From an uncultured Gammaproteobacteria bacterium (GTDB lineage: Bacteria > Patescibacteriota > Microgenomatia > Daviesbacterales > UBA10151), in the NCBI GenBank assembly GCA_964432475.1, contig CAYSNN010000003.1, positions 7,297 to 39,936 on the forward strand: 32,640 bases of DNA, written 5' to 3'. The position numbers and the translations under genes are program-made. Numbering within the stretch: position 1 is the stretch's first letter; each line of letters starts with the position of its first letter. Shown here in pieces: positions 5,356-30,505 of this stretch. Under the pieces are notes generated by a model. The model saw nothing but the letters and a program-made list of their open reading frames with translations, ran no database searches and had not been told where the DNA came from.

Positions 5356-6255
5356 ATGCCAAGAAAAATTTCAGCAGTAGTTAATACGCTTAATGAAGAG
5401 GCGAATATCGCTAGAGCAATTAAAAGCGTTAAGTGGTGTGATGAGATTCTAGTTTGTGACATGCACTCAGTTGATAAAACTGTTGAGATTGCTAAAAGTT
5501 TAGGAGCAAGAGTAGTCTTTCATGAAAAATTGGAGTTTGTAGAGCCAGCAAGAAACCTAGGTATTTCAGAAGCAAATGGTGAATGGATTTTAATCCTTGA
5601 TCCGGATGAGGAAATTCCTAACAGTTTGGCTGCTAAATTACAGCAAATTGCAGAAAGGATGCATGAAATAGATTATGTCAGATTGCCAAGAAAGAATCTG
5701 ATCTTTGGCAAGTGGATGAAGGCCTCAATGTGGTGGCCTGATTTTAATATCAGATTTTTTAGGAAAGGTAAAGTTGAGTGGACGGATAAAATTCATAGAC
5801 CCCCTCAAACCCAAGGTGTTGGGATAGATCTATCAGAAGATGAGCGATTATCGGTCATCCACCATCACTATGACTCAATTACGCAATTTCTAGAAAGAAT
5901 GAATAGGTATACTAAAATACAAGCAGAAGAGCTAGTCGAAGGTGGGTATAAATTTAATTGGGAGGACTTAATTAAAAAACCGTTGGGTGAATTTTTAGGA
6001 AGATTTTTTGCAAATAAAGGATATGCAGACGGAATACATGGGTTGGTTTTAAGCTTACTCCAATCCTTTTCATTTTTGATTGTTTATCTGCGTATCTGGG
6101 AGGCAGAAAAATTTAAACAAGAAGCTATTGATATGAAGGAACTTGAGGGTGTAAGCAAGCAGGCGAGAGAAGAGCTCCGGTATTGGTTTAAATTTATCAA
6201 TCTATCTAAAAATCCGTTTAAAAGATTTGTCCAAAAGGTGAAAGATAAAGTTTGA
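5356..6255 (+). CDS. GT2 glycosyltransferase, KdtX/WaaE-like subfamily (paralog 1 of 3)
   Basis: ISAVVNTLNEEANI (GT2 beta1), DKTVEIAKSLG and LILDPDEE (DxD-type motif). It also has the C-terminal helical region FLERMNRYTKIQAEEL and hydrophobic helices. It is preceded by a 62-nt gap with a promoter-like element. Confidence 0.8.
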   Translation: MPRKISAVVNTLNEEANIARAIKSVKWCDEILVCDMHSVDKTVEIAKSLGARVVFHEKLEFVEPARNLGISEANGEWILILDPDEEIPNSLAAKLQQIAERMHEIDYVRLPRKNLIFGKWMKASMWWPDFNIRFFRKGKVEWTDKIHRPPQTQGVGIDLSEDERLSVIHHHYDSITQFLERMNRYTKIQAEELVEGGYKFNWEDLIKKPLGEFLGRFFANKGYADGIHGLVLSLLQSFSFLIVYLRIWEAEKFKQEAIDMKELEGVSKQAREELRYWFKFINLSKNPFKRFVQKVKDKV

Positions 6256-6267
6256 GAGAAGGCAAAA

Positions 6268-7086
6268 ATGTTAAGTGTAATAGTACTTACAAAAAACGAA
6301 GAAAGCAGAATAAAAGCTTGTTTTGAGTCTGTTAAGTGGGCTGATGAGATTATATTAGTGGATAACGGGTCCTCAGATACGACTTTAGAAATAGCTAAAA
6401 AATATACAGATAAGATATTTTCATTTGAAAATCAAGATTTTGCAGCTTTCAGGAATGAAGCCTTTAAGAAAGCCTCAGGTGACTGGGTACTATACCTTGA
6501 TCCTGATGAGAGAGTATCACAAGGCCTTAGGGAGGAAATCGAGCAAATTATTAATAATGAGGAATTCGCAGCTTATGCTATTTCTAGGAAAAATATTATT
6601 TTTGGGCAGATGGTAAAATACGGGCCGTTTTGGCCGGATTGGGTTATTCGATTATTGAAAAAGAGCGATTTTGAAAATTGGGTAGGTAAAGTTCATGAAT
6701 ACCCCAAGTTTAAGGGTAAACTGGGGTTTACGAAGAATTCTTTGATACACCTAACACACCGTAACCTGGATCAAATTGTTTTAAAAAGTTTAGAGTGGTC
6801 AAAAATCGATGCAAAATTAAGAATAGATTCTCATCATCCTAAGATGTCCGGATGGAGATTTTTGAGGATTTTCCTTTCTGAAACATTCAAGCAAGGTGTA
6901 TTAAGAAAAGGTTTTCTTAACGGTACAGTGGGGATTATGGACTCCATGCTCCAGGTTTTCTACATGTACATTACCTATATTAGATTATGGGAAATGCAGC
7001 AGCCTATCTCTCTTGATAAAACTTATGATGAAATTGATAAAGCTTTAATAGAAAGTTCTTTTAGCCTAGATAGTCTAAAAAAATGA
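6268..7086 (+). CDS. GT2 glycosyltransferase, KdtX/WaaE-like subfamily (paralog 2 of 3)
   Basis: LSVIVLTKNEESRI, VDNGSSDTTLEIAKKY and LYLDPDER. It is collinear with the 5356 and 17719 products. GAGAAGG lies upstream of the ATG. Confidence 0.8.
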   Translation: MLSVIVLTKNEESRIKACFESVKWADEIILVDNGSSDTTLEIAKKYTDKIFSFENQDFAAFRNEAFKKASGDWVLYLDPDERVSQGLREEIEQIINNEEFAAYAISRKNIIFGQMVKYGPFWPDWVIRLLKKSDFENWVGKVHEYPKFKGKLGFTKNSLIHLTHRNLDQIVLKSLEWSKIDAKLRIDSHHPKMSGWRFLRIFLSETFKQGVLRKGFLNGTVGIMDSMLQVFYMYITYIRLWEMQQPISLDKTYDEIDKALIESSFSLDSLKK

Positions 7087-8156
7087 AGACTGCAATCTAC
7101 TCCCCTTATTTAGATACATTTGGTGGTGGTGAGAAGTATATGATGACTATAGCTGAAGTTTGTTGTCAGGCTGGTTATAAAGTTGATGTACTTTTGAGTA
7201 ATCATTTAAACAGTTTAGGTCCGGAGTTATTAAGAAAGCAGTTATCAGAGAGATTTAATTTAGATCTTTCAAACGTAAATTTTATTAAGGCTCCAATAGG
7301 GAAAGGATCAAATTTATTTAATAGACTCTTTTTTCTCAAAAATTATGACAGCTTTTTTTATTTAACTGATGGAAGTATTTTTATTTCAACCGCGGATAAA
7401 AATATTTTACATATTCAGACTCCCCTTGTAGGCCAACCGGCTAAAAGTATTTGGGGTAAAATCAAGCTGAAGTTTTGGAATTTAATTATCTATAATTCAC
7501 AGTTTACTAAAGCAAACTCTGATAAGAATTGGCCGCTCTCATCTGAGGTGGTTTTTCCTCCGGTTGATATTGATAAAATCAAGCCTCTGCAGAAGAAAAA
7601 TTATATACTTTCTGTGGGTAGATTTTTTGGTTACTTGAAAGATAAAAAGCATGAATTGATGATTAAAACTTTCAAAAAATTAGTTGAAACTAAAAGAATT
7701 GTCGGCTGGAGTTTAAATTTAGTTGGTTCGGCAAATAGCGGAGACGAACCATATTTAATGCAGTTGAAAAGTTTGGCAAAAGGATTACCTATAAATTTTT
7801 ATCCCAATTTAAGCTATGATGATTTAGTCAAGTTGTACGGACAATCCTCTATTTATTGGCATGCCTCAGGATTTGGGGAAAATGAGCCAACAAAAATGGA
7901 GCATTTCGGTATTGCTACTGTAGAGGCAATGGCAGCAGGTTGTGTGCCTGTTGTAATAAGGAAAGGCGGACAAATAGAAATTGTAGGTGCAGGCAGCGGT
8001 TTTTTATGGAACGATCCGGGTGAGTTTCAGGAATACACCATGAAAGTTATTTCAGATAAAGCCTTAAGAGAAAAAATTGGAAAAAAGGCAATTGAGAAAA
8101 CAAGGCTTTTTTCGAAAAAGAATTTTAAAGAAAAAATATTAGAGGTTTTAAGATGA
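7083..8156 (+). CDS. GT4 (Glycos_transf_1) glycosyltransferase, ALG11-like by motif
   Basis: ATGA overlap with the upstream gene. The N-terminal YSPYLDTFGGGEKYMMTIAEV and the EX7E region EHFGIATVEAMAAGCVPVVIRKGGQIEIV resemble ALG11-type alpha-mannosyltransferases. This comparison is from memory, not a search. Confidence 0.7.
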   Translation: MKTAIYSPYLDTFGGGEKYMMTIAEVCCQAGYKVDVLLSNHLNSLGPELLRKQLSERFNLDLSNVNFIKAPIGKGSNLFNRLFFLKNYDSFFYLTDGSIFISTADKNILHIQTPLVGQPAKSIWGKIKLKFWNLIIYNSQFTKANSDKNWPLSSEVVFPPVDIDKIKPLQKKNYILSVGRFFGYLKDKKHELMIKTFKKLVETKRIVGWSLNLVGSANSGDEPYLMQLKSLAKGLPINFYPNLSYDDLVKLYGQSSIYWHASGFGENEPTKMEHFGIATVEAMAAGCVPVVIRKGGQIEIVGAGSGFLWNDPGEFQEYTMKVISDKALREKIGKKAIEKTRLFSKKNFKEKILEVLR

Positions 8157-9625
8157 ATAATTGGTTTAAGATTGCAGTCTTTCTTTTGGTTTTTCTTTTT
8201 ACCTTTATACTAAGAGCACATAATTATGAAAAAACTCCCGGGGCTCTGCATCTGGATGAAATGCTTTATGCCTGGTCCGGGTTGTATTTAATTGAAACCG
8301 GTATTCCTGTTTCTTGGTCCACCCTGGATTACCCCCAAAGAGCGGAAATTTTTAAAGGAACAGTTGATTATAGGGGAGGAGAACCGTCAACATCTGTTAC
8401 CCTTTATAAACCTTGGTTAGATGAGCCACCTCTTTTCTCTTTGATAGTTGGATACTTTGCCCACAATTTTAAGGCTGACAGAACTGACTTTATCCCATCA
8501 TCTTATATTAGATTTCCGACTGTTATTTTTGCTGCTATAACATCTATTATGGTTTTTCTCATTACCAGGTTACTGAGCGGATATTGGACTGGAATACTTG
8601 CTATGCTCATCTACGGAACAGTACCTATCTTTGTTTTTGCTTCCCGGGTTGCTTTACCAGAAAATTTAATTGCCTTAATTTTCGTATTGATGGCTTTTTT
8701 ACTGTTAAAGTTTTATCAACACCCTCAATTTAAATATATACTGCCCATACCCTTATTGGTTGGTATTGCAGGATTATCTAAACCAACAGGTTTTTTTCTT
8801 ATATTTATAGCTATTTATATAATCTTTAAAAAAATGTATGAGGATAAACAATTTAAAAAAGCAATCTGGAAAATTTTATATGTTATTTTGGGAACAATTC
8901 CATTTATTGGGATATTTATTTCCTATGGTTTTTACTTTGACCCGGAAATCTTTTGGAGAATAACTTCTGTTCAGTCTTTTAGACCGGTAGGTTTTAAAAG
9001 TTTAGCCTGGTTTTTTGTATCACCTTCATATGGAACACATTTTGTAATTGATGGATGGTATATTTTTTGCTTGCTCTCTGCGGCATATTTTATTTTTGCT
9101 CCAAAAGAAGGGTTAAAAAGATTAATTAGCTTATTTTTTGTATTTTGGATAGGAGTTGTCATAATTAGCGGAGGAGAGGGTGATCTGCTGGCATGGTATC
9201 GCTTTCCTTCCTTCCCTTTCTTAGCAATACTGGGAACATGGGGCTTGCAACTATTGATTCAGAAATCGAATCTCTTTACATCATTTTTAGCTGTAGGGTT
9301 TCTTTTATCAAGCAGATCGTTACTGGTTAATGCCTTCAGGCCAAATATTGCTCCACTCAATTTTAGGCTGTTCTTTTCCACCTTACTTTTACCTTCAATA
9401 TTAGAATCTATTTTTGAAACCCCGCTACTTCACAAAGTAACAAAAGCAGTGATGATTTTAGTTATTTCAGTTGGAATTTATCTAAATGTTTTATATATAT
9501 ACAATGAATATGAGATTGTTTGTCAGAGCGTTGATTGTCCTCTCGTGCCAACTACGACTTTATCGACTCTTCACTTTCCTTTTTTCTGGAGATTTTTTGT
9601 TCTGGGAGAATCAAAATATAGATAA
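8153..9625 (+). CDS. GT-C fold glycosyltransferase, PMT_2-like with a long first loop
   Basis: ATGA overlap with the upstream gene. TM1 is followed by TPGALHLDEMLYAWSGLYLIETG, a long loop ending KPWLDEPPLFSLIVGYF (PPL motif of PMT_2/ArnT), and at least 10 further hydrophobic helices. It has no WQYGY tail. Confidence 0.7.
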   Translation: MNNWFKIAVFLLVFLFTFILRAHNYEKTPGALHLDEMLYAWSGLYLIETGIPVSWSTLDYPQRAEIFKGTVDYRGGEPSTSVTLYKPWLDEPPLFSLIVGYFAHNFKADRTDFIPSSYIRFPTVIFAAITSIMVFLITRLLSGYWTGILAMLIYGTVPIFVFASRVALPENLIALIFVLMAFLLLKFYQHPQFKYILPIPLLVGIAGLSKPTGFFLIFIAIYIIFKKMYEDKQFKKAIWKILYVILGTIPFIGIFISYGFYFDPEIFWRITSVQSFRPVGFKSLAWFFVSPSYGTHFVIDGWYIFCLLSAAYFIFAPKEGLKRLISLFFVFWIGVVIISGGEGDLLAWYRFPSFPFLAILGTWGLQLLIQKSNLFTSFLAVGFLLSSRSLLVNAFRPNIAPLNFRLFFSTLLLPSILESIFETPLLHKVTKAVMILVISVGIYLNVLYIYNEYEIVCQSVDCPLVPTTTLSTLHFPFFWRFFVLGESKYR

Positions 9626-10362
9626 TGGGAAATCCTAAGGTATTAATTGTTATGCCTGCATATAATGCAGAGAAAACCCTGATTGATACATATTATGAGA
9701 TTCCGAGTAAGTTCCGTCATAATATTATTGTTGTTGATGATCAAAGTAAGGATAAAACAGTCGAGATTGCCAAAAGTTTGGGAATTAAGGTTTATACTCA
9801 CACCAGTAATCTAGGATATGGGGGAAACCAAAAAACTTGCTACCAGCAAGCCCTAAAATTAAATACCGACATAGTAGTAATGCTACATCCTGATTATCAA
9901 TATGATGCTAGTCTGATTGAGGAACTTATTAGGCCGATAACGCAGGGCAGGTATGATTTTATGTTTGGTTCAAGGATTCAAAATAAAGAAGGGGCCTTGA
10001 GAGGAGGAATGCCGAAGCTTAAATATTATATTAATCGTCTAACTTGTATAATTGAAAATATATTACTAGGAGTTAATTTTACCGAACACTTTTCGGGTTT
10101 TAGGGCTTATTCCGTCAGTGTGCTTAAAAAGGTACCTTTTGAGAAGTTTTCAAATGATTTTGTCTTTGATCAGCAGATGGTGATGTCAGCGCTAAGTTGT
10201 GACTTCAGAATTGGAGAGATAGCTATTCCAACAAGATATCATGATAAAGCTTCATCTATACAATTTATAAAAGGAACAAAATTCCTTCTGCAAACTTTTT
10301 GGACAATATTTCTTTTTCAACTCCATCAATCAGGATTAATAAGAAGCAGGTTTTTTAAGTAA
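9625..10362 (+). CDS. GT2 glycosyltransferase, DPM1/GtrB-like (putative polyprenyl-phosphate sugar synthase)
   Basis: TAATG one-nt overlap with the upstream gene. Motifs are VLIVMPAYNAEKTL, VVDDQSKDKTVEIAKSLG, MLHPDYQYD, GSRI...GGMPKLKYYINRLT, HFSGFRAYS and a hydrophobic C-terminal helix. Confidence 0.7.
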   Translation: MGNPKVLIVMPAYNAEKTLIDTYYEIPSKFRHNIIVVDDQSKDKTVEIAKSLGIKVYTHTSNLGYGGNQKTCYQQALKLNTDIVVMLHPDYQYDASLIEELIRPITQGRYDFMFGSRIQNKEGALRGGMPKLKYYINRLTCIIENILLGVNFTEHFSGFRAYSVSVLKKVPFEKFSNDFVFDQQMVMSALSCDFRIGEIAIPTRYHDKASSIQFIKGTKFLLQTFWTIFLFQLHQSGLIRSRFFK

Positions 10363-10428
10363 TCTACTGATAATTTTCCGCTAATATAGCTTTTCTTATC
10401 TTAAATTGCTAACATTAATTTACAACTA

Positions 10429-12087
10429 ATGATGAAAACTACAAAATATCTAGTTTTTATACTAATAATCTTACTTGCGTTTTTTTTGAGACTTCATAAG
10501 GTAACTGAGATACCGCCATCTTTAAACTGGGATGAGGTTTCCATAGGTTATAATGCTTATTCTATTTTAAAAACAGGAAAGGATGAATGGGGTAAATTCT
10601 TCCCAATTCATTTTAAATCTTATGGGGAGTATAAGTTACCTGTTCAAATTTATTTATCAATTCCGGGAATCTACTTTTTTGGTTTGAATGAAATCGGTGT
10701 CAGAATTACACCTGTAATTTATGGAACCTTGACAGTCTTAATAATGTTTTTTTTAGGAAGGGCCCTTTTCCAAAGCTTTGTAGCCGGTCTAATATCTGCA
10801 TTTCTTCTTGCTATATCCGCCTGGCATATCCAACTGACAAGGGCTTCTTTTGAATCTTCGCTGGCTACTCTTTGGATCGTTTTGGGGATATGGTTTTTTG
10901 TTAAGGGTTTTAGAAGTCAGAAGTGGTTTGTTTTTGCAATGATACCGTTTGCATTATCTGTTTTTACTTATAATACGGCAAGGTTTTTTACTCCGCTATT
11001 TGTCATAGTAATTTTTTTGTTATATTACAAAAAGCCTGGGGGATTTAGAAAAGTATTGATACTTTCAGTAATAAGTTTTGTTATTTTGCTTTTACCGCTA
11101 ACACCGTTTTTACTTTCAGGAGAAAGGAGTGCAAGATATAAATTGGTAAGTATCACTGATGATCCGGGGTTAGTATTAAGAATAAATGAAAACAGGGGTG
11201 CCTCCAGCCTCCCCCAACCCTTACCCCGTTTGATACACAACAAAGTAAGTTATGTTAGTTTTTATTTTGCAAAAAACTACCTACTGCATTTTAGTCCACA
11301 ATTTTTATTTGTATCGGGGGCTCCACACAAGCAACATCATGTGCAAAACATGGGACAACTCTATTATTTTCAGGCACCCTTTCTGATATTAGGTTTATGG
11401 GGTCTGTTTAAATTCAAGAATAAATTTAAGGGCCTACTTTTATCATGGGTGCTTCTCGCCTTTATTCCGGTTTCTGCCACAAATGACAGTATACCTCATG
11501 CTTTAAGAACACTGATAGCAGCGCCTTTCTATCAGTTTATTTCAGCATATGGATTTTTGTGTTTTCTAAAATGGTCAAAAAGAATTCATAAAGTTATAAA
11601 TATTTCATTATCAGCAATACTAATCATTATAGTGATTAGTAGTATTAACTTTTACTTAAATCAGTATTACAATATCTATCCCAAAGTCTATTCAAGAGAT
11701 TGGCAGTATGGTTATAAGGAAGTTGTAGGGTATATAGCAGAGCATAAAGATGAATATGATCAAATTATTTTTTCAAGGCACTTCGGCGAGCCGCATATGT
11801 TTACTCTTTTCTATTTAAACTATGATCCGGCTAAATATCAAAAAGATCCTACTTTAGTAAGATTTGAAACACATGATTGGGTTAGGGTACTAAGATTCAA
11901 CAAATACTATTTTCCTGATTTAGGTGATGAAGGCACTAAGTTTGATGATGTTGTAAAAGAAAATCCGGGCAAGAGACTACTATTTATTGGAAAAATGGGT
12001 GATTTCCCAAAAGATATGCACAGGCTTTTTACTGTTGATTTTCTTGACGGTAAAAGAGCCTTTGAAGTTGTAGAAGTAAAGCCCTAG
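10429..12087 (+). CDS. GT-C fold glycosyltransferase, GT39/ArnT/PMT_2-like (paralog C)
   Basis: IPPSLNWDEVSIGYNAYSILKTGKDEWGKFFPIHFKSYGEYKLP, ISAWHIQLTR, HFSPQFLFVSG and IPHALRT. The C-terminal module is RDWQYGYKEVVGYIAEHKDEYDQIIFSRHFGEPHMFTLFYLNYDP. Its stop TAG (12085-12087) overlaps the stop of the convergent gene. Confidence 0.85.
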   Translation: MMKTTKYLVFILIILLAFFLRLHKVTEIPPSLNWDEVSIGYNAYSILKTGKDEWGKFFPIHFKSYGEYKLPVQIYLSIPGIYFFGLNEIGVRITPVIYGTLTVLIMFFLGRALFQSFVAGLISAFLLAISAWHIQLTRASFESSLATLWIVLGIWFFVKGFRSQKWFVFAMIPFALSVFTYNTARFFTPLFVIVIFLLYYKKPGGFRKVLILSVISFVILLLPLTPFLLSGERSARYKLVSITDDPGLVLRINENRGASSLPQPLPRLIHNKVSYVSFYFAKNYLLHFSPQFLFVSGAPHKQHHVQNMGQLYYFQAPFLILGLWGLFKFKNKFKGLLLSWVLLAFIPVSATNDSIPHALRTLIAAPFYQFISAYGFLCFLKWSKRIHKVINISLSAILIIIVISSINFYLNQYYNIYPKVYSRDWQYGYKEVVGYIAEHKDEYDQIIFSRHFGEPHMFTLFYLNYDPAKYQKDPTLVRFETHDWVRVLRFNKYYFPDLGDEGTKFDDVVKENPGKRLLFIGKMGDFPKDMHRLFTVDFLDGKRAFEVVEVKP

Positions 12088-14491: not shown

Positions 14492-14527
14492 GATATGATT
14501 ATATTGTTGTCTTATGCCTAAGTCTAT
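14476..14527. promoter_or_regulatory. Mirror-symmetric divergent promoter pair with overlapping -10 elements
   Basis: On + : TAGACT (14477-14482), 17 nt, TATATT (14500-14505), then ATG 14514. On - : TAGACT (complement of 14521-14526), 17 nt, TATAAT (complement of 14498-14503), then ATG at 14491. The 7-bp inverted repeat ATAGACT (14476-14482) / AGTCTAT (14521-14527) is centred on the shared -10 block. Confidence 0.4.
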
Positions 14528-16124: not shown

Positions 16125-16126
16125 AA

Positions 16127-18489: not shown

Positions 18490-18493
18490 GAAG

Positions 18494-22749: not shown

Positions 22750-22769
22750 TTAATTTTACTACTCTAACG

Positions 22770-22778: not shown

Positions 22779-22784
22779 GGTTCA

Positions 22785-24311
22785 ATGTGGTTTTTGAAGA
22801 AAAAAATTTTAATCGCTTTTGCCTTCCTCTTTTTACTCACGTCCGGTTATTTCTACAATAATAAAGCATTAGATTTTAGATTTGTTGATGAGGAAGACAA
22901 TTTTGCTATAGGTAAATACCTTGCAAAAGGAGAGATGCTTTATGATGATATACTCACAAACCACCAACCGTTGACTTATATTTTTAGCGCATTTATACAT
23001 AAATTTACCAATCCTAATAGTGTTTATGTTTTAATAACAAGACATAGGCAATTTGAGATAATCTGGTCAACCGCTTGGTCGCTCCTTCTGATATTTTATT
23101 TCGGGTTGGGTGCATTTATAGCTGTTTTTATTTTTGAGCTTACAAAAATTTATCTACTAGGCAATTTATTTTTGTCTGAAGCCCAAACCATATATCCGCT
23201 ACTTATTATTACCGGGTTAGCAGTCTTCTCCTATAAAAGAAGATTAAAAAGCCTGGAGTTGATTCTTCTAGGTATATGTTTTGGGATCGTATTACTTATG
23301 CTAAGTCCGCTTTGGCCTGCGTTAACCCTTTTATTAATTTTTCTACTTTTAAAACAACGGGAAAACTTACTACACACAATGGGCTATATCTTGGTGGGTT
23401 TGTTATTACCAGTATCAATTTTATTCAAATTTACCTCTTTTCCCGGGTATTTAAATTATATATTTTCTATTAATTTAACCTATACTATCCCAAGTTACCA
23501 TAATGAGTCCTGGATTATATCAATTTCCAAAGCCTTACTTACTCCAGTTCTAGCACTTTTTTCACAAGATATCGGTCCAATGGCAATAATAATTAAGCTG
23601 CTCGGAGTCTTGTTAATAGTAAACATTGTGTTTCTGGTATTTAAAAAGCAATTGCTTTTAGCAATCAGCATTTTAATCCTGCTGGGTCTTTGTAATATCC
23701 GATTTATCTTTCCCGGCACCCAAGGATATGAAGGGTTTCATTTATTACCATGGTACGCAATGCTTGTTTTTATAGTTTCTATTTTATCAGTTGAGCTTTT
23801 TTGGAAAAGCAATATAATATTGAAGGTACTTAATCCCTTAGTAATTATTTTACTGGTTGGGTTAAGTATTAATTTTTTACAAGCAGATTTATTTCAGAAA
23901 AAAAATATGACAGATAGTTACAACATTAATTATTCAACAGTTATTAATAGAGGTGATGCGGTGAAAGTCATGAAAGAGGCAGGAGATACATTATTTGTTT
24001 CTCCTAATGCATGGATGATTTATTGGCAGGGGGATATTGACCACTTACCAAAATTGTACGGTTATTACACTTGGATGTCAGGTGTTCCGGAAATACATTC
24101 AGCTGTTTTGGATGCATTTTCTAAAAATCCACCAACTTTTTTTTACTGCGAAAACTGTAAGGGCTTAGATTTAGAAAAATTTCTAAGTGGATATATAGAA
24201 ATTAAAAATAATGGAAATTTGAGTATGTTATATGTTTTAAAGAGTAAGATTCCAAGATTGACTAAAGAACAGTTGGCTCAATTAAGTTTTTACGGTTTCA
24301 GCATAAATTAA
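22785..24311 (+). CDS. Orphan polytopic membrane protein, probable GT-C fold (PMT_2-like first loop)
   Basis: 508 aa. TM1 is followed by the acidic loop FRFVDEEDNFAIGKYLAKGEMLYDDILTNHQPLTYIF (DE-type motif plus a (K/H)xPL motif). It has about 11 helices and a C-terminal soluble region of about 130 aa. Confidence 0.5.
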   Translation: MWFLKKKILIAFAFLFLLTSGYFYNNKALDFRFVDEEDNFAIGKYLAKGEMLYDDILTNHQPLTYIFSAFIHKFTNPNSVYVLITRHRQFEIIWSTAWSLLLIFYFGLGAFIAVFIFELTKIYLLGNLFLSEAQTIYPLLIITGLAVFSYKRRLKSLELILLGICFGIVLLMLSPLWPALTLLLIFLLLKQRENLLHTMGYILVGLLLPVSILFKFTSFPGYLNYIFSINLTYTIPSYHNESWIISISKALLTPVLALFSQDIGPMAIIIKLLGVLLIVNIVFLVFKKQLLLAISILILLGLCNIRFIFPGTQGYEGFHLLPWYAMLVFIVSILSVELFWKSNIILKVLNPLVIILLVGLSINFLQADLFQKKNMTDSYNINYSTVINRGDAVKVMKEAGDTLFVSPNAWMIYWQGDIDHLPKLYGYYTWMSGVPEIHSAVLDAFSKNPPTFFYCENCKGLDLEKFLSGYIEIKNNGNLSMLYVLKSKIPRLTKEQLAQLSFYGFSIN

Positions 24312-24315
24312 GTTT

Positions 24316-25440
24316 ATGAAAATCCTTATTTTTTCTTGGAGAGGGCCAGGCCATCCTCATGCAGGAGGAGCAGAACATTCTACTTCAAAGCACGCAAAAG
24401 GGTGGATTAAAGCAGGGAATCAGGTAACATTATTTACCTCCTCTTTTCAGGGAGCAAAGTCTGAAGAGGTGATAGATGGGATGAGAATTGTCAGGAGAGG
24501 ACAACAAGTTTTTAGTGTACATCTAAGAGCGCTTGTTTGGTACTTATTTGGAAGCCATGATATTTTTGACATAGTTATTGATGAAGTTCATGGACTTCCT
24601 TTTTTCGCCCCGATTTTTGTAAGAGTGCCTAAATTGGTTTTTATCCATGAAGTTGCAAAGGAGGTTTGGAAACTGAATCCTTGGTCATTTCCATTTAATT
24701 TATTACCTGCAGTAATAGGGCCTCTACTGGAGCCGCTAATATTTAAATTTTTTTATCAAGAGATGATTTTTATGACTGTGTCCCAATCTACAAAGAATGA
24801 TTTGATAGCTTGGGGTATTCATAAAGAAAATATTACAATAGTACATAATGGTTTTGAAAATCCAAATTACAAGATAGATAAGAAAGAAACTAAAAAGACA
24901 ATTATCTATTTGGGCGCTCTTAGCAAAGATAAAGGGATTGAAGATGCCCTGGTTGCGTTTCAAAACCTAGCTGAAAGCCATAAAGATAGCCAGTTTTGGA
25001 TAGTCGGTAAAGGAGAAGGTCGCTACCTTGAATTTTTAAAGGAGAGAGTAAAATCTTTGGGAATAGAGGGGACCACAAAGTTTTTCGGATTTGTTACCGA
25101 TCGCGAAAAATATAAACTGTTATCTAAAGCCCATATTTTAATTAATCCCTCTATCAGGGAGGGTTGGGGATTTGTCGTTATCGAAGCTGCATCAGTCGGC
25201 ACACCGACTGTCGGATATAATGTGGCCGGATTAAAAGATTCCATTATAGACGGGAAAACGGGTTTGCTGTCGGAACCAAATGCGGAAAGTCTGACAGAAA
25301 AAATTAGCTACTTACTTAGCAATGAAGCAGTCTACAGAAGCTTTTGCGAAAATGGTAAGCGCTGGAGCCGAAAGTTCTCCTGGTCTGAATCTGCAAATCA
25401 GAGTTTAAAACTGTTGGAAAAAGTGTCAAAAGATACCTAA
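24316..25440 (+). CDS. GT4 (Glycos_transf_1) glycosyltransferase
   Basis: The N-terminus is WRGPGHPHAGGAEHST. The EX7E region is REGWGFVVIEAASVGTPTVGYNVAGLKDSIIDGKTGLL. Confidence 0.8.
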   Translation: MKILIFSWRGPGHPHAGGAEHSTSKHAKGWIKAGNQVTLFTSSFQGAKSEEVIDGMRIVRRGQQVFSVHLRALVWYLFGSHDIFDIVIDEVHGLPFFAPIFVRVPKLVFIHEVAKEVWKLNPWSFPFNLLPAVIGPLLEPLIFKFFYQEMIFMTVSQSTKNDLIAWGIHKENITIVHNGFENPNYKIDKKETKKTIIYLGALSKDKGIEDALVAFQNLAESHKDSQFWIVGKGEGRYLEFLKERVKSLGIEGTTKFFGFVTDREKYKLLSKAHILINPSIREGWGFVVIEAASVGTPTVGYNVAGLKDSIIDGKTGLLSEPNAESLTEKISYLLSNEAVYRSFCENGKRWSRKFSWSESANQSLKLLEKVSKDT

Positions 25441-26439
25441 CTAGCTGCGCCAATTTTTTGGAAGCATTGGGCTATCCAGTTCTACCCTATCATAAATATA
25501 TTCCTGCGGACCGAGTTGTTTTGCATATTCCCAGGTTGCTTTTATACCCTTATGTAAAGAGGTTTTGTCTTTATATCCCAAATATTTTTTTGCCTGGGTA
25601 TGATCCGCTACTGCTTCTTTTACTTCCTGCGGTCTTTCATCCAAATAGATCGGAGGAATGTTAATATCAGTGACTTGTTGAATAGTGTCGGATAGTTCAT
25701 TAACTGAATAATCCTTATCTGCACCAATATTAAAAGTCATAGTATTAAAGTTTCCGAAGCCGCATTTAAAAATTGCATCAACTACATCGTCGATAAAAGA
25801 AAAACATCTTCTTTGGTTACCATCCCCATAAATGTAATAAGGTTGTTTTTTTAGTAATGCATTCATGAAGATTGTCACTACATTTCTGTATGGATCATTC
25901 ATATTTTGTCTTGGTCCATAGCAATTATGCGGACGGGTAATAACATATTCAAATTTATGAACTTTACTTAAAATTTTTAAAGCTTCCTCCATAGCCAGTT
26001 TACTTACACCATATAAGTCTTCCGGTTCGGGTTTATCAGTTTCTTTAAATGGAGTTTGTAATGATCCATAGACTGCGATACTTGAAGTAACAATAATTCG
26101 TTTCATACCGCTATTTAGAGATGAAACTAAAGTGTTAATAAAAGTATTCCAGTTTCTTGAAGTGATATCTATCGGAGAAAACTGTGCTTTATTTTCAGCG
26201 GCATTAGCAGCTAAATGAAATACTATCCCAGGTTGTATTTTCTTTATGATTTTGTCAGTCTTTGTTACCTCTCTTAGATCGCAGAGATAAAACTTGGCTT
26301 TAGGATTAATATTAGCTTTCTTACCTCCGGAAAGATCATCAATAATACTAACTTTATGACCATTTATTATTAATCTATCTACTAGATGAGACCCTATAAA
26401 TCCGCCGCCACCGGTAACCAGTATATTTTTAGACTTCAT
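25441..26439 (-). CDS. NAD-dependent nucleotide-sugar epimerase/dehydratase (extended SDR)
   Basis: ILVTGGGGFIGSHLV (Rossmann GxxGxxG), TSSIAVYG and YGVSKLAMEE (S...YxxxK catalytic set). Its stop codon abuts the stop of the convergent GT4 gene with zero intergenic nt. Confidence 0.85.
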   Translation of the reverse strand: MKSKNILVTGGGGFIGSHLVDRLIINGHKVSIIDDLSGGKKANINPKAKFYLCDLREVTKTDKIIKKIQPGIVFHLAANAAENKAQFSPIDITSRNWNTFINTLVSSLNSGMKRIIVTSSIAVYGSLQTPFKETDKPEPEDLYGVSKLAMEEALKILSKVHKFEYVITRPHNCYGPRQNMNDPYRNVVTIFMNALLKKQPYYIYGDGNQRRCFSFIDDVVDAIFKCGFGNFNTMTFNIGADKDYSVNELSDTIQQVTDINIPPIYLDERPQEVKEAVADHTQAKKYLGYKDKTSLHKGIKATWEYAKQLGPQEYIYDRVELDSPMLPKNWRS

Positions 26440-26446
26440 GTTTTAC

Positions 26447-26455
26447 ATATTAACA
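26447..26455 (-). promoter_or_regulatory. Extended -10 promoter candidate for the epimerase gene: TGtTAATAT on the minus strand
   Basis: The reverse complement of 26447-26455 reads TGTTAATAT. It ends 7 nt upstream of the minus-strand ATG (26439-26437). There is no good -35. Confidence 0.3.
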
Positions 26456-26474
26456 TAACTCGTTATGGCGCGTA

Positions 26475-26503
26475 TTGCTTAACAGAATTTTAGCTAATAT
26501 AAT
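26475..26503 (+). promoter_or_regulatory. Near-consensus sigma70-like promoter: TTGCTT-17 nt-TATAAT
   Basis: TTGCTT is at 26475-26480 and a perfect TATAAT at 26498-26503, with an exactly 17-nt spacer. The ATG at 26513 lies 9 nt after the -10, and there is no SD. Confidence 0.45.
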
Positions 26504-26512
26504 GATATTTAA

Positions 26513-27001
26513 ATGAATTATATAGCCGGAATAATTTTACCTGTAGTTCTATTTATCTTTTTACCAAACTCATCTTTGGTTTATGCTGCTCAGGATATTG
26601 ATTTGCCATCTGTTTTCATACAACCGGGTATGACTTATTATCCAGTTAAAAGATTATTTGAAAATTTGATGGAAAAATTTCAGTTCACAGATGATACAAA
26701 GGCAAAATATTACGAAGATCTTCTTCAAATAAGATTAGCAGAGTTAAAATATATTGTTGATAAAGATTATCTTGATCAAGTGGAAAAATCTACTCAAAGA
26801 GTATCATATCAGGTAGGAATCTTAACAGATTATGTTGTAGGGAAAAAACTAAATAACAAAAAACAAAATTTAGTAAATTTATACAAAGAAGATAAAATTA
26901 TTCTAGAAAAATTAAGAGATAAATATCCTTTTAACTCCAGTTATTGGATGTTTGTTCAGCATATTATTAACTCTATTGATATAAATCAGCAAAAATTTTA
27001 A
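26513..27001 (+). CDS. Small secreted or membrane-anchored helical protein, DUF5667-like
   Basis: The N-terminal hydrophobic signal/anchor is IAGIILPVVLFIFLPNSSLVYA. It is followed by PGMTYYPVKRLFENLMEKFQFTDDTKAKYYEDLLQIRLAELK, which resembles the PGSP.Y.LKR..E.....F......A......A..RL.E signature of DUF5667 proteins (from memory). Confidence 0.5.
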   Translation: MNYIAGIILPVVLFIFLPNSSLVYAAQDIDLPSVFIQPGMTYYPVKRLFENLMEKFQFTDDTKAKYYEDLLQIRLAELKYIVDKDYLDQVEKSTQRVSYQVGILTDYVVGKKLNNKKQNLVNLYKEDKIILEKLRDKYPFNSSYWMFVQHIINSIDINQQKF

Positions 27002-27002
27002 A

Positions 27003-28919
27003 ATGATAAATAAGATTCCCCGCTCACTTCTAATATTTATTGTGATTGTCCCCTTGATCTTTTTTCTCGAATCTAAACTTCTTGCCCCTCACTTAAGATA
27101 CGGTTTTGCAGATGTGGATTGGGGATATCTGTACCAATATAAAATGTTGGGAGAGGCACCTTTTACAAAAATATATGAAGCCTGGAAAGGATCAGGTGTT
27201 TACACATACGGAGCTTATTATATGGGGATTGTTGAGCATTTTTTTCCGATTGATGGTTTTAACTTTGTAGGCATACATAAAGTCAATCACTTTTTTAAAT
27301 TTCTGTCTGCCATAACTTTATTCCCCTTGGTTTTAGCTTTTACAGGCAAAAGATTACTGTCGGCGTTAACGACTATTCTTTATTCTGTTGCTTACTCTTC
27401 AGTAGCACCTTTGTATTCGGCACAGGTTAGTGGTTATTATCTGGGAATAACAGTGATGAATTTATTTGCCGCTTATTATATTTTAATAGTAAAAAATAAT
27501 AAGACCGGGTTATTCTGGTTAATTTTTGGGGCCTTATTGTTCGTTTCAACATTATTCATTGCTACTGAAAGAATGTATCCTTTAATACCTCTGATAGTAT
27601 TGGGGGAGTTATTATGGATGCAAAATCAGAAATTTTCCGGATCAATTGTAAAATCCTCTATAATAAGGCAAATTGCACTTTTTTCTCCTGTAATATTGGT
27701 GTTTTTATTACAGTTGTTCCATGGACCTATTCAATTTGGAGGGGCAACTAGTTTTTTTGCTAATACCAAAGTGATTTTTCAGAAGATAATAGAGGGGAAC
27801 TGGCAGCTTGCGCTGAATCCTCTAATTTCCTTAGCAAGTTTATTTTTCCCAAGAGAATCCTGGGGATTGTTAGGTTCTGACAGATATGCTTTGACTGGAT
27901 TTGGGGAATATATATGGTTCTTTTTAGGACCATTTTTCCCATTCCTTATTTTTATCATCATTTTAAGCTTCCTGATCTTAAAAAAAAGGCGAAGATTTAT
28001 ATTACTGACCTCTATTTTGGCAATTACCTTAGGTATTAAAACCTATATACTGGCAAGTCACCAACTCTCAATAGCTGAAGCTTTAAGACTTTCTTTTGAT
28101 ACCATGTTCTTAAAGCCGGTGCTAATAGGTGTATTTGTCATTTCTTTAACTCTATCATTATTTATTGAATGGTTATTGAATGGTAAAAAAGAAGATTATC
28201 TCCTATATCTTTTTATAGGACCAGCTGTAGCCTTTCTTTTTATTTTTTTGACTTGGCTTCCATCAGACTACACTTTAATTGTTGCAGGAGTTCACAGATA
28301 TTTGGCAGTTGCTGCCATTGCTTCTTCTTTTTTTATTGCTGTACTCATTACGCTTTTTTATGAAAAAATTAACAAGATAAAAGAGTTGCGTCTCTTTTCC
28401 TGGCTCATTTTATTAATCATTATACCCATTATTCAACTCGATTTTTCTATTGTGGGTGCCTATTTTGATCAAGAATTGAATTATTCAGGCATGGATGGAA
28501 TTGAACAAAGCAGGATGAAAGAGAAGCTCCTATCTTATATGGGTGATTTTGACTTGAAAGAGCCTACCTTATTTTATTTTGATGAGCAAGACCGGGAAAA
28601 TGGATATCTTCATGAAACAACAATAATAGCCGGTTTTCCTACCTGGATTAAATTTAGAGGTAAAAGTATGCCACTAGATGGAATTACTCCGGAATATATA
28701 AGAAATGCAGATCTTGGTTCTGAAACGAATGTTTATTGTACAGGAGTTAATGTTGATTGTATGGGTAAACTTAGAAGTTATGTCACTTTGCAAAACGGAG
28801 AAAAAGGTATCTTATATAAGAATGTTTTTTATCCTCCCAATAGATTTTATGCCTTTAGACTGAAAGATAGAGATGTATTAGACATAAAAAGTGAAATTTT
28901 TCAAAAAATGGGTATTTAG
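27003..28919 (+). CDS. Large polytopic membrane protein with a C-terminal soluble domain; possible GT-C-like enzyme
   Basis: 638 aa and starts 1 nt after the upstream stop. TM1 is followed by the loop HLRYGFADVDWGYLYQYKMLGE (acidic DxD-like), at least 12 hydrophobic helices and about 160 aa of hydrophilic C-terminus. I recognise no confident family motif. Confidence 0.4.
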   Translation: MINKIPRSLLIFIVIVPLIFFLESKLLAPHLRYGFADVDWGYLYQYKMLGEAPFTKIYEAWKGSGVYTYGAYYMGIVEHFFPIDGFNFVGIHKVNHFFKFLSAITLFPLVLAFTGKRLLSALTTILYSVAYSSVAPLYSAQVSGYYLGITVMNLFAAYYILIVKNNKTGLFWLIFGALLFVSTLFIATERMYPLIPLIVLGELLWMQNQKFSGSIVKSSIIRQIALFSPVILVFLLQLFHGPIQFGGATSFFANTKVIFQKIIEGNWQLALNPLISLASLFFPRESWGLLGSDRYALTGFGEYIWFFLGPFFPFLIFIIILSFLILKKRRRFILLTSILAITLGIKTYILASHQLSIAEALRLSFDTMFLKPVLIGVFVISLTLSLFIEWLLNGKKEDYLLYLFIGPAVAFLFIFLTWLPSDYTLIVAGVHRYLAVAAIASSFFIAVLITLFYEKINKIKELRLFSWLILLIIIPIIQLDFSIVGAYFDQELNYSGMDGIEQSRMKEKLLSYMGDFDLKEPTLFYFDEQDRENGYLHETTIIAGFPTWIKFRGKSMPLDGITPEYIRNADLGSETNVYCTGVNVDCMGKLRSYVTLQNGEKGILYKNVFYPPNRFYAFRLKDRDVLDIKSEIFQKMGI

Positions 28920-28931
28920 ATAATTTTTTCA

Positions 28932-29825
28932 ATGATGTTAAAAGTTCTGGTCTTTGGAGGAAGCGGATTAGTAGGTTCTAGAATAAAACAACTTTTGGGG
29001 TTTAAGTATCAAATAATTGCTCCTTCTCATCTTCAGGCTGATGTTGCCGATAAAAAGGCAGTAGAACAAATTATAAAAATATCAAAACCCGATTATATTA
29101 TCTATGCGACAGGCCTTAGCAGCGTGGATGAGGCAGCACAGTATCCTAAGTTAGCTTATTTACTGAATGTCCAGGCACCTGGCTTTATTGCAAGGCTCGC
29201 TGTTTCTATTGGTGCTCCTATGCTATATTTTTCTACTGACGCAGTTTTTGATGGCTCCAAAAGTAATAGTCCTTATTTTGAAGACGATAGAACCCATCCA
29301 TTATCTGAATATGGTAATTCAAAGCTTTTAGGAGAACAGGCGGTTATGGAAGCATCTGAAAGAAATTGCATAGCTAGGATTATTATGGTGTATTCACCCG
29401 GATTTACTAAAAGAAAGAGATTTGTACAAATTGCCCTTGAGACTCTTAAAAAAGGAGAAAAGTTTTATGGTGTTTTGGATCAAGTAGTTAACCCGATATA
29501 TGTTGATGATATTGTTTATTCAGTAGACTTATTACTTGAATCCGAGAGTAACGGTATTTATCATTTAGGTGCAAGAGACTATGTTACAAATTATGAATTT
29601 ATTAAAAAATTGGCAAAGGAATTCAATCTAAATGAGAATTTGATAAAAGGAATATCTTTTGAGGAATTTTTTAGAGGGAAGACTCTAAGGACTCAATTTT
29701 GTTGGCTGGATACATCAAAATTCAGGCAGAAATTTGGCGGGAAAATACTTCACTCTGTTGATGAAGGTATCCACCTATTCAAGAAGAATTTAGATCTTTT
29801 AGAAATACCCCAAAAATACCAGTAA
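28932..29825 (+). CDS. RmlD-like NAD(P)H-dependent nucleotide-sugar 4-reductase (RmlD_sub_bind family)
   Basis: VLVFGGSGLVGSRI, STDAVFDG and YGNSKLLGEQAV (compare the YG.SKL.GE of dTDP-4-dehydrorhamnose reductases). The size (~297 aa) fits. The 3' end overlaps the convergent GT2 gene by 76 nt. Confidence 0.7.
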   Translation: MMLKVLVFGGSGLVGSRIKQLLGFKYQIIAPSHLQADVADKKAVEQIIKISKPDYIIYATGLSSVDEAAQYPKLAYLLNVQAPGFIARLAVSIGAPMLYFSTDAVFDGSKSNSPYFEDDRTHPLSEYGNSKLLGEQAVMEASERNCIARIIMVYSPGFTKRKRFVQIALETLKKGEKFYGVLDQVVNPIYVDDIVYSVDLLLESESNGIYHLGARDYVTNYEFIKKLAKEFNLNENLIKGISFEEFFRGKTLRTQFCWLDTSKFRQKFGGKILHSVDEGIHLFKKNLDLLEIPQKYQ

Positions 29826-30505
29826 ATATACTTTGGTAACCACTTTAGAAACTTAAACTTAGATTTACCTGATGATCTTTCTTTCCAGACGGAGGGAGTT
29901 TCTGTAATTTTGAAACCTAAAAAATGAGCTTTAATTAATATTTCCATGGTAAATTCCCAGCCTCCCTGTGACTCGATATTTATTTTTTTCAATATTTTCC
30001 GGTTATACATTTTAAAACCATTGGTTAAGTCTGAAGTGGGAATACCTAAAAGCACAGGTGTGGTCAATCCTGCAAATTTTGAGAGAAGAGATTTAATGAA
30101 GTTTCCTCCCAACTGCTTTCCGTCTTTACAGTAACGTGATGCGCAAACTATGTCGTACCCTGTTTTTGCTAATTCATACATTTTATTGATAGTTTTCGGT
30201 TCATCAGCAAGATCTCCCGGCATTATTACATAAAAATCACCTTTAGCTTTTTTAAATCCGGTTTTACAGGCATTAATTAAGCCGGGTTCGAAAATATTTT
30301 TTATCAGTTTGATATTCTGATATTTTCTTTTAAGCTTTCTTACAACAGGTAAAGTATTATCCTCATCGAAATCGTACACTATTAGCACTTCGTGTTTTAT
30401 ATTAATTGAACTCTCCAGATCATAAATAAATTTTTTTATATTACTACCCTCGTTATAGACAGGCGTAATAACACTTATATATATCTTGTTAAGACTTATA
30501 GGCAT
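29750..30505 (-). CDS. GT2 glycosyltransferase, DPM1/Ppm1-like (putative polyprenyl-phosphate mannose/hexose synthase)
   Basis: ISVITPVYNEGSNI, VYDFDEDNT, MPGDLAD, SDLTNGFKMYNRKIL, WEFTMEILIKAHFLGFKITETPSVWKERSSGKSKF and a hydrophobic, aromatic C-terminal helix. Confidence 0.75.
   Translation of the reverse strand: MPISLNKIYISVITPVYNEGSNIKKFIYDLESSINIKHEVLIVYDFDEDNTLPVVRKLKRKYQNIKLIKNIFEPGLINACKTGFKKAKGDFYVIMPGDLADEPKTINKMYELAKTGYDIVCASRYCKDGKQLGGNFIKSLLSKFAGLTTPVLLGIPTSDLTNGFKMYNRKILKKINIESQGGWEFTMEILIKAHFLGFKITETPSVWKERSSGKSKFKFLKWLPKYIYWYFWGISKRSKFFLNRWIPSSTE

Follow-up and report, generated by a model that had tools for sequence, protein, structure and literature searches.

A conserved Microgenomates gene cluster that probably serves extracytoplasmic glycosylation from lipid-linked monosaccharide donors

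We analyzed a 32,640-nucleotide stretch of DNA (hereafter the window) spanning positions 7,297 to 39,936 of the forward strand of contig CAYSNN010000003.1 (GenBank assembly GCA_964432475.1), a record titled as an uncultured Gammaproteobacteria bacterium. We conclude that it probably carries a conserved surface-glycan locus of the Microgenomates, devoted to extracytoplasmic glycosylation from lipid-linked monosaccharide donors. The locus is distinguished by three candidate polyprenyl-phosphate-sugar synthases without transmembrane (TM) segments, one MOP-family flippase and about ten GT-C glycosyltransferases, including members of two families orphan to Pfam, all within a single conserved cluster of more than 32 kb. 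An initial annotation, made from the sequence alone, had read positions 5356-30505 as an assembly line for an extracytoplasmic glycan, and we found this logic supported at the level of family, fold and synteny.

Gene content and scope of the comparison

We assigned open reading frames (ORFs) to families using Pfam and NCBIfam profiles, compared AlphaFold models with the PDB using Foldseek and used hhalign for remote homology. Related loci were found by scanning one genome for each species with a four-sequence alignment of GT-C paralogs (group A, described below) as the query, and the locus counts given here refer to the best 80 of the 160 relatives of these paralogs. One relative, L082 (GCA_040960095.1), was annotated independently.

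The window contains 29 ORFs of at least 100 amino acids, and neighboring ORFs overlap or are separated by only a few bases, which suggests an operon-like arrangement. The 11 GT-C or GT-C-like ORFs cover 52% of the window bases and all glycan-related ORFs together 92%, a density of glycan genes that is far beyond chance. In a hydropathy scan, the GT2 and GT4 proteins were not polytopic and all 11 GT-C candidates had 6-11 hydrophobic segments, GT-Cs being polytopic proteins of 7-13 helices. Every gene named in the initial annotation was recovered at its coordinates in the ORF list, the Wzx start at 20721 being in frame with the ORF at 20712-21983. The first GT-C gene starts at 824, upstream of the 5356-30505 span, and the cluster runs beyond both ends of the window.

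GT-C membrane glycosyltransferases

Six of the GT-C proteins (group A) are paralogs sharing 29-36% identity with one another. They are encoded at 824..2467 (plus strand; Pfam PMT_2, E-value 6.5e-11, with a "GDE" motif after the first TM segment), 3665..5293 (plus; PMT_2 and PMT both above cut-off, and a phmmer match to the paralog at 10429 with an E-value of 1e-81), 10429..12087 (plus; PMT, 3.6e-9), 12084..13709 (minus; PMT_2, 2.4e-9), 14514..16124 (plus; PMT_2, 1.2e-12) and 16103..17722 (plus; PMT_2, 1.2e-13). Several of them pass the Pfam PMT model (PF02366) besides PMT_2. Together with a distant PMT_2/PMT protein (group B) at 8153..9625 (plus; PMT_2, 4.4e-15; "LDE" motif after the first TM segment), whose stop codon overlaps the start of the synthase gene at 9625, these are the seven ORFs with PMT_2 and/or PMT matches. 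The PIG-V family is matched only at 19561..20724 (plus), by a GT76-like GT-C of the conserved core (Mannosyl_trans2, PF04188, 34.1 bits against a gathering score of 22.4), which upholds the PIG-V-like assignment of the initial annotation. PDB sequence searches with the 8153 and 19561 proteins returned no match.

An acidic motif follows the first TM segment in 10 of the 11 GT-C-like ORFs, that of the PIG-V protein being "FDGEHY". The exception is a truncated GT-C-like membrane protein at 2469..3668 (plus), which hhalign aligned to the group-A profile (probability 97.8%, E-value 1e-12) over columns 107-397 only. In group A, this first loop contains a D35-E36 pair and a D52 that are invariant across all six paralogs. 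Identity within the group is 41.6% over the N-terminal 60 residues, 18.5% in an outer loop and 21% in the C-terminal domain. A shared N-terminal catalytic loop combined with diverged outer loops and C-terminal domains would fit one chemistry applied at different acceptor positions, with a common donor chemistry and diverged acceptor recognition. The best solved match of the group-A profile is ArnT, a weak one (3e-5). The most conserved member is 10429, with orthologs of up to 73% identity in 80 loci; orthologs of 8153 were found in 11-15 of the 80 loci, and those of 12084(-) only in L003 and L011.

Two further GT-C candidates belong to families without a Pfam entry. The first, mem508, is encoded at 22785..24311 (plus), and its AlphaFold model (pLDDT 94.9, pTM 0.93) consists of a helical bundle with a small C-terminal alpha/beta domain. 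All of its top 11 Foldseek matches in the PDB are GT-Cs (AglB, AftA, STT3A, Pmt4, ArnT, ALG3, Pmt1 and EmbB), the best being archaeal AglB, an oligosaccharyltransferase. The family comprises about 100 "hypothetical proteins" from the candidate phyla radiation (CPR); D35 in its "FVDEEDNF" motif is invariant among 64 aligned sequences, and no Pfam glycosyltransferase match was found among these 64 members, which gave just two stray single-member hits. The model thus assigns mem508 with high confidence to the GT-C fold, in a family absent from Pfam. The second protein, mem638, at 27003..28919 (plus), has about 11 TM segments and a nearly invariant D39 in a "GFxxDDW" motif after the first of them, and hhalign matched it to the group-A core (probability 85.6%, E-value 5.6e-6). 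Its family is rare (166 clusters among 1.84 billion representatives), and from its sequence it is a probable GT-C.

The mem508 gene lies between the genes for DPS2 and GT4c (see below), and its closest homolog (68-69% identity) is on the contig of L011. GT4c comes straight after DPS2 in most other relatives (L002, L004, L009, L010 and others), which makes the mem508 gene look like a lineage-specific insertion into a conserved core.

The initial annotation relied on most of the membrane proteins being glycosyltransferases, and the PMT_2/PMT and PIG-V matches, the fold of mem508 and the probable assignment of mem638 bear this out. By analogy, the GT-Cs would use donors linked to polyprenyl phosphate or diphosphate at the outer face of the membrane. 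Five membrane ORFs have no Pfam match, namely 2469, 22785 and 27003, described above, and 41-820 and 13667(-).

Candidate polyprenyl-phosphate-sugar synthases

Donors of this kind could be supplied by three short GT2 proteins, DPS1 (9625..10362, plus), DPS2 (21943..22749, plus, adjoining the Wzx gene) and DPS3 (29750..30505, minus). All three cover the Pfam Glycos_transf_2 model (PF00535) from position 1 or 2 to position 166 or 167 of 168, and the best solved relative of each is the dolichol-phosphate-mannose (Dol-P-Man) synthase of P. furiosus (PfDPMS, PDB 5mlz). For DPS1 this was the sole PDB match (3e-6); DPS2 matched it with an E-value of 3.5e-15, ahead of GtrB (6e-12); DPS3, the most DPM1-like of the three, matched it over residues 7-219 with an E-value of 4.3e-28. 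GtrB and ArnC come next for DPS2 and DPS3. The initial annotation had placed candidate donor synthases at these three loci, and possibly also at 32483, where the window holds only the first 52 residues; for the three, full-length GT2 matches and the PfDPMS relationship corroborate the assignment. Its ALG5-type label found no specific support beyond GT2 membership, the protein at 21943 matching DPMS, GtrB and ArnC only generically, among models of which none was specific to ALG5. None of the closest NCBIfam neighbors of DPS1-3 (AglJ, PpgS, Dol-P-hexose transferase, PgfS and ArnC) reaches its equivalog cut-off; for DPS1 they are AglJ at 4e-21, followed by PpgS and Dol-P-hexose transferase. The mutual identity of the three proteins is only 22-26%, which implies an old divergence and probably differing specificity.

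In PfDPMS, Asp91 and Gln93 bind the metal and Arg117, Arg131 and Ser135 hold the phosphate of the lipid acceptor (PMC5526996). The acceptor loop contains Arg202 and Lys208, and two interface helices clamp the isoprenoid (PMC5526996). We read the equivalent residues off HMMER alignments to PfDPMS. DPS3 retains the equivalents of E12, D91, R117, G122, S135, R202 and K208, with Lys at 131 and Trp at 177; DPS2 has Lys at 117 and retains R131 and S135; DPS1 retains D91, Q93 and R117, with Lys at 131 and Asn at 135. Apart from the Asn of DPS1, the three lipid-phosphate ligands are either retained or conservatively substituted in all three proteins. Conservation of the lipid-phosphate and acceptor-loop residues is full in DPS3 and partial in DPS1.

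The AlphaFold model of DPS2 has helices at 135-152 and 220-243, the positions expected for the interface helices, and a Foldseek search of the PDB with this model put ArnC, GtrB and DPMS structures in all of the first 17 places (E-values of 1e-15 to 1.7e-12, query-normalized TM-scores of 0.57-0.71). The hydropathy scan predicted no TM segment in DPS1-3. A hydrophobicity maximum of less than TM strength falls at the first interface-helix position in 21943 and 29750(-) and at the second in 9625, and the C-termini of all three proteins are aromatic-rich helices. From the model and the alignments, two amphipathic interface helices are predicted in the DPS proteins. Among known enzymes, GtrB and ArnC are anchored by two TM helices, PfDPMS by four and yeast DPM1 by one. 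A DPM1 without TM segments is nevertheless a known type, represented by human DPM1, which depends on DPM3 (PMC5526996). DPS1-3 are thus plausible DPM1-type polyprenyl-phosphate-sugar synthases. The possibility, named in the initial annotation, that they are ordinary GT2s is contradicted by their closest solved relatives, which are polyprenyl-phosphate glycosyltransferases, for DPS2 also by the predicted fold, and by the lipid-phosphate ligands, which are mostly kept.

Flippase and cytoplasmic glycosyltransferases

The Wzx/MOP-family flippase is encoded at 20712..21983 (plus), its 3' end overlapping the start of DPS2. It has about 10 TM segments and matches Polysacc_synt_3 (9e-21) and Polysacc_synt (2.6e-18), in agreement with its first identification. 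Cytoplasmic GT4 and GT2 enzymes, likewise expected by the initial annotation, are present as three GT4s and a trio of GT2s. GT4a (7083..8156, plus; Pfam Glycos_transf_1, 3e-24; no TM segment), GT4b (18494..19564, plus; 4.5e-33; conserved core) and GT4c (24316..25440, plus; 3.4e-38) are cytoplasmic. The ALG11-like label once given to the 7083 protein did not hold, with only generic GT4 models matching, no match to ALG11_N and a fragment of WbaZ-1 as the best PDB match (2.6e-6).

The GT2 trio, here called GT2x, consists of close paralogs (E-values of 1e-38 to 1e-42 in an all-against-all comparison) at 5356..6255 (plus; Pfam GT2; C-terminal hydrophobic helix), 6268..7086 (plus; assigned by Pfam/NCBIfam and paralogy) and 17719..18489 (plus; Pfam GT2; the first core gene after the conserved GT-C trio). 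Their matches begin at the N-terminal end of the GT2 profile and cover no more than half to three-quarters of it (positions 1-101 up to 1-147), and the best solved relatives of the 17719 protein are GmaR (2.9e-18) and then SunS, which are protein or peptide glycosyltransferases. We considered the GT2x proteins as lipid-sugar synthases and rejected this, as neither the profile coverage nor the best relatives resemble those of the synthase class. The paralogs carry "DPDE/DADE" in place of DXD and end in a conserved hydrophobic helix, "G-x-x-DG-x-x-G ... Y-x-x-x-W-E". GmaR is a flagellin O-GlcNAc transferase.

Conservation across the Microgenomates

The nearest relatives of the window are metagenome-assembled genomes (MAGs) of Microgenomates (Daviesbacteria, Woesebacteria), with identities of up to 73%, which supports the earlier guess of a CPR-type cell. 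The order GT-C trio (orthologs of 10429, 14514 and 16103), GT2x, GT4b, PIG-V, Wzx, DPS2, GT4c is conserved in Daviesbacteria, Woesebacteria, Shapirobacteria and Blackburnbacteria, and "Microgenomatus" is also among the best 80. At least 31 of the 80 loci have every core gene from the last GT-C to DPS2 in order (a lower bound, as the retrieved flanks end). Of the 38 loci with a DPS2 gene, 36 have Wzx immediately before it. Among the other core genes, GT2x (17719) is found in 72, GT4b in 63 and PIG-V in 55 of the 80 loci. Most loci have 3-6 full-length GT-C paralogs within 21 kb, with a range of 1-7 between related loci. The upstream module GT2x-GT2x-GT4a occurs in 30 loci, and DPS1 lies inside the GT-C array in 15-28. 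The independent Pfam annotation of L082 gave the order DUF5667, PMT, PMT_2, PMT_2, GT2, GT4, Mannosyl_trans2, Polysacc_synt, GT2, GT4, epimerases. Complete chromosomes among the related records measure 0.80-1.08 Mb, so a cluster of more than 32 kb would take up no less than about 3% of a genome close to 1 Mb in size, in keeping with the large investment that had been proposed.

The same Microgenomates locus is found in dozens of MAG records, from binchicken and SRP co-assemblies, whose titles read "uncultured Gammaproteobacteria" or "Pseudomonadales". These loci (L002, L005-L009 and many others) show 50-73% identity and the gene order of the named Daviesbacteria and Woesebacteria records, and such titles look like placeholders or wrong taxonomy. 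We also considered a horizontally acquired island and rejected it as unsupported, the G+C content of the window being even (0.30-0.36) and the locus being syntenic across the clade.

Proposed mechanism

We propose that cytoplasmic GT4 and GmaR/SunS-like GT2x enzymes would assemble a short glycan on a membrane lipid, either a carrier or a glycolipid anchor, primed by a gene outside the locus. DPS1-3, which by family and fold are GT2s of the DPM1/GtrB/ArnC type and would be bound peripherally to the membrane, would each use a nucleotide sugar to load polyprenyl phosphate with a different sugar. The single MOP/Wzx transporter would then carry lipid-linked material to the outer face, its cargo being either the oligosaccharide or the polyprenyl-phosphate-sugar itself, as proposed for archaeal AglR and the Citrobacter MATE flippase. 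There, about ten GT-Cs, assigned by family and fold (six PMT_2 paralogs, one distant PMT_2 protein, one of PIG-V type and the two orphan families), would extend and branch the glycan using the flipped donors, and one of them may hand it to the final acceptor. Precursors would be provided by an epimerase, an RmlD-like reductase, a nucleoside diphosphate (NDP)-sugar dehydrogenase and a NUDIX hydrolase. What this scheme says of the sugars of the glycan, its acceptor and the cargo of Wzx is inference.

A more specific form of this scheme would make the cluster a single-locus bacterial counterpart of the endoplasmic reticulum (ER) and archaeal lipid-linked-oligosaccharide pathway, with a GT4/GT2 start, a MOP-mediated flip, stepwise lengthening by GT-Cs using three polyprenyl-phosphate-sugars and en bloc transfer by an oligosaccharyltransferase- or ligase-like GT-C, for which the protein at 22785-24311 is a candidate. 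We regard this as a tentative and rather unlikely elaboration.

Evaluation of alternative interpretations

Several observations count against extracytoplasmic glycosylation from lipid-linked monosaccharides. The DXD/"DAD..Q" metal motif deviates in all three candidate synthases: DPS1 has "HPDYQY", keeping D91 and Q93 and lacking the first Asp of DAD; DPS3 has "PGDLAD", keeping only D91 and also lacking that Asp; DPS2 has the variant "DAGMDLNP", conserved among its orthologs. Built from a shallow alignment, the DPS2 model reaches medium confidence (pLDDT 76, pTM 0.76), and generic GT2s enter its Foldseek list from about 4e-12, a gap of only 3-4 orders of magnitude. Neither a gene for a DPM2/DPM3-like small anchor nor a GtrA/SMR-type flippase was found in the window. 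The protein at 2469 has no conserved Asp or Glu after the first TM segment, so that the catalytic loop is missing, and it lacks the C-terminal domain too; it is retained in four related loci and may be non-catalytic, perhaps a partner of an adjacent GT-C. The unassigned membrane proteins 41-820 and 13667(-) could hold functions that alter the picture. Finally, with no primer gene in the locus, the cytoplasmic start of the glycan is a guess.

The main rival explanation is protein O-glycosylation, in which PMT-type GT-Cs would transfer the sugar of a polyprenyl-phosphate-sugar onto Ser/Thr of a secreted protein (S-layer, pilin or adhesin), the GT4, GT2 and Wzx genes serving a separate or auxiliary glycan. 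Several paralogs do pass the PMT model and not PMT_2 alone, the pairing of Ppm1 with Pmt is standard in actinobacteria (PMC5882110), the nearest relatives of GT2x act on proteins or peptides, and Wzx weakly matches an NCBIfam "O-glycosylation flippase" model (3.4e-8). Yet PMT_2 is a broad family, and the ArnT match of the paralog profile, itself weak, is to a lipid-modifying enzyme. The window holds no candidate acceptor protein, the DUF5667 protein possibly excepted, and the close grouping of three GT4s, a PIG-V-type enzyme and Wzx in one operon speaks for an intermediate that is an oligo- or polysaccharide. We give this explanation a low probability. Decoration of a lipid or of a teichoic-acid-like wall polymer, by ArnT/YfhO/GtrC-like GT-Cs that each add a single sugar in parallel three-component modules, for instance for surface variation or for evasion of phages or hosts, is less likely again. 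It would suit the ArnT match, the strong divergence of the acceptor-side regions and the variation of paralog number between related loci, and classical three-component systems do decorate, with GT-Cs that vary by serotype (PMC11127046). Lineage-specific variation would, however, suit decoration better than the retention of the trio 10429/14514/16103 as orthologs across deep Microgenomates lineages, and the GT-Cs, being consistently coupled to GT4, GT2x, PIG-V and Wzx genes, seem to take part in building the glycan.

An ordinary Wzx/Wzy locus would require the short GT2s to be cytoplasmic repeat-unit enzymes and some of the GT-C-fold or unassigned membrane proteins to be a Wzy polymerase and a ligase using diphosphate-linked donors. 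Wzx is present, such loci typically hold cytoplasmic GT2 and GT4 enzymes and nucleotide-sugar genes, and mem508 has an oligosaccharyltransferase as its closest match in fold. Of the parts that mark a classical locus, only Wzx was matched: Pfam and NCBIfam gave no priming phosphoglycosyltransferase (WecA/MraY- or WbaP-type), Wzy, Wzy_C/EpsG-type polymerase, chain-length regulator or exporter among the window ORFs or within 10 kb on either side in L082, with the limits that Wzy proteins often escape such models, that 41-820 and 13667(-) have no assigned family, and that a primer gene could be located elsewhere in the genome. Ten GT-Cs, six of them PMT_2 paralogs, far exceed one polymerase plus one ligase, and the short GT2s are closest to polyprenyl-phosphate glycosyltransferases and keep their lipid-phosphate ligands. 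The view of the initial annotation that this is not a classical O-antigen or capsule locus is in line with these results, and we consider the Wzx/Wzy explanation very unlikely. Both it and decoration are less likely than protein O-glycosylation, and extracytoplasmic glycosylation from lipid-linked monosaccharide donors is the interpretation that we retain.

Other genes of the window

Between GT4c and the right end of the window lie an NAD-dependent NDP-sugar epimerase/dehydratase (25441..26439, minus; Pfam Epimerase, 7e-48; GalE-like, below the equivalog cut-off), an RmlD-like dTDP-4-dehydrorhamnose reductase (28932..29825, plus; RmlD_sub_bind, 1e-54; TIGR01214, 189 bits for a cut-off of 224), a nucleotide-sugar 6-dehydrogenase (30587..31954, plus; TIGR03026, 274.6 bits against a cut-off of 189.8), a NUDIX hydrolase that weakly resembles GDP-mannose mannosyl hydrolase (31947..32444, plus; NUDIX, 1e-11; NF011963, 8.6e-9, below cut-off) and the 5' end of a GT2 gene that is cut by the window end (32483..32640, plus; first 52 residues; Pfam GT2, 2.8e-6 over 42 residues). 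The dehydrogenase scores best against UDP-ManNAc dehydrogenase, below the equivalog cut-off, and together with the NUDIX protein it hints at mannose and aminosugar-uronate chemistry. The ORFs of DPS3 and of the convergent RmlD-like protein share 76 bases at their 3' ends (29750-29825), and the Pfam match of the latter stops about 25 residues short of its stop codon.

A small signal-anchored DUF5667 protein (26513..27001, plus; Pfam DUF5667, 1.6e-9) may act as an accessory subunit or serve as a substrate. Its gene repeatedly lies beside one for a large GT-C-like membrane protein, in the window the 638-residue orphan mem638. In L082 it lies beside a gene for a weakly GT87-like protein, and that locus also has a Pfam-less pair of 164 and 635 residues that resembles this arrangement (490-978; 17778-20190).

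At the left end of the window, 41..820 (plus) encodes the C-terminal 259 residues of a multi-pass membrane protein of about 670 residues that is cut by the window start (a full-length ortholog being, for example, L003:588-2606, 672 residues). Its orthologs adjoin the GT-C array in 28 related loci. Apart from a weak NCBIfam match to Chlor_Arch_YYY (0.0015), searches of Pfam and the PDB and hhalign against the GT-C profiles gave no significant match. For an orphan protein with 6 TM segments (13667..14491, minus), a database of 5.8 billion sequences contains only 36 homologs, all of them lacking Pfam domains; it gave nothing significant with Pfam/NCBIfam at relaxed thresholds or with hhalign against three GT-C profiles. 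With the GT-C paralog that follows it, it forms a minus-strand two-gene unit (12084-14491) within the plus-strand array, a unit otherwise found only in L003 and L011.

Three ORFs (12084-13709(-), 16103-17722 and 20712-21983) begin with TTG in the ORF list, and the paralog alignment suggests internal ATG starts a few codons downstream, such as 20721 for Wzx, which would abolish most of the apparent gene overlaps. Promoter and terminator scans of the window yielded about as many hits as expected from shuffled sequence and therefore defined no operon boundaries, and no tRNA or Rfam element was found in the window.

Significance

In our literature search we found neither this locus nor GT-C arrays described for CPR bacteria, and glycans are unmentioned in a 2024 review of Patescibacteria biology. 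The share of the genome that the cluster occupies and its conservation across deep Microgenomates lineages imply that the surface glycan is central to the biology of these bacteria, in which it may take part in host attachment or phage evasion. The locus contains two families that Pfam does not cover, one a probable GT-C (mem638) and the other (mem508) now with a confident GT-C model. With three synthases, one MOP flippase and about ten GT-Cs, it also offers a compact natural set for asking which flippase moves polyprenyl-phosphate-sugars, a question that is open even for Dol-P-Man. If true, the lipid-linked-oligosaccharide scheme outlined above would mean that ultra-small bacteria possess an ALG-like "inside then outside" assembly line that includes new GT-C families.

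Comparison with known systems

The initial annotation had likened the locus to eukaryotic and archaeal dolichol chemistry and to actinobacterial lipoglycan assembly. This likeness stands for the overall logic and for the PMT_2/PMT and PIG-V families; membership in the ALG, Emb/Aft and GT87 families did not hold.

In Citrobacter youngae, a polyprenyl phosphoribose synthase is found with a MATE flippase and a GT136 GT-C (PMC11127046), and in Haloferax, AglD, the Wzx-like AglR and AglS handle Dol-P-Man (PMC3871713). AglR and the C. youngae flippase provide a precedent for a MOP-superfamily protein acting on a monophosphate-linked sugar. As in the three-component systems (GtrB-GtrA-GtrC, ArnC-ArnE/F-ArnT and that of C. 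youngae), the window encodes candidate polyprenyl-phosphate GT2s, a flippase and GT-Cs together, and as in C. youngae the flippase is of the MOP/MATE superfamily and not of GtrA/SMR type. It differs from them in combining three synthases, one flippase and about ten GT-Cs in one cluster, in synthases that lack the C-terminal TM helices of GtrB and ArnC, in additional cytoplasmic GT4/GT2 steps that make it look like assembly and not decoration, and in its host, a monoderm-type CPR bacterium that is no lipopolysaccharide producer.

The actinobacterial pathways for lipomannan, lipoarabinomannan and arabinogalactan (Ppm1, PimA/PimB', PimE, MptA/B/C, Emb, Aft) resemble the locus in running GT4 steps before serial GT-C steps, in the TM-less synthase of Ppm1/DPM1 type and in their many paralogous GT-Cs. 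By contrast, the GT-Cs of the window belong to PMT_2, PIG-V and orphan families, with no Pfam match to GT87, GT53 or Aft in the window; its genes form one operon-like locus, whereas the mycobacterial genes are scattered; and it holds no genes for phosphatidylinositol synthase or the decaprenylphosphoryl-arabinose (DPA) pathway. A paper on Saccharibacteria describes genes for a Dol-P-Man synthase and for GT87 in a different context.

The AglD-AglR-AglS system and AglJ/Agl cluster of Haloferax volcanii resemble the proposed system of the window in having a Dol-P-hexose synthase of the GT2 family, a Wzx-like MOP protein implicated in Dol-P-Man flipping, an outward-facing Dol-P-Man mannosyltransferase and a nucleotide-sugar dehydrogenase in the same cluster (PMC3871713). 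Unlike it, the window is from a bacterium and not an archaeon, its matches are far below the equivalog cut-offs (AglJ, 75.6 bits compared with 325), and no AglB/STT3 oligosaccharyltransferase was identified by sequence in the window. Of the ER dolichol pathway (ALG GT4s, RFT1, DPM1/ALG5, ALG3/6/8/9/10/12, PIG-V, PMT), no ALG-specific family (ALG11_N, ALG3, ALG6/8 and others) was matched in the window. What the two would have in common are GT4 steps, a MOP protein, TM-less DPM1-type synthases and GT-Cs acting on the far side of the membrane, and the PIG-V family PF04188 itself is matched in the window.

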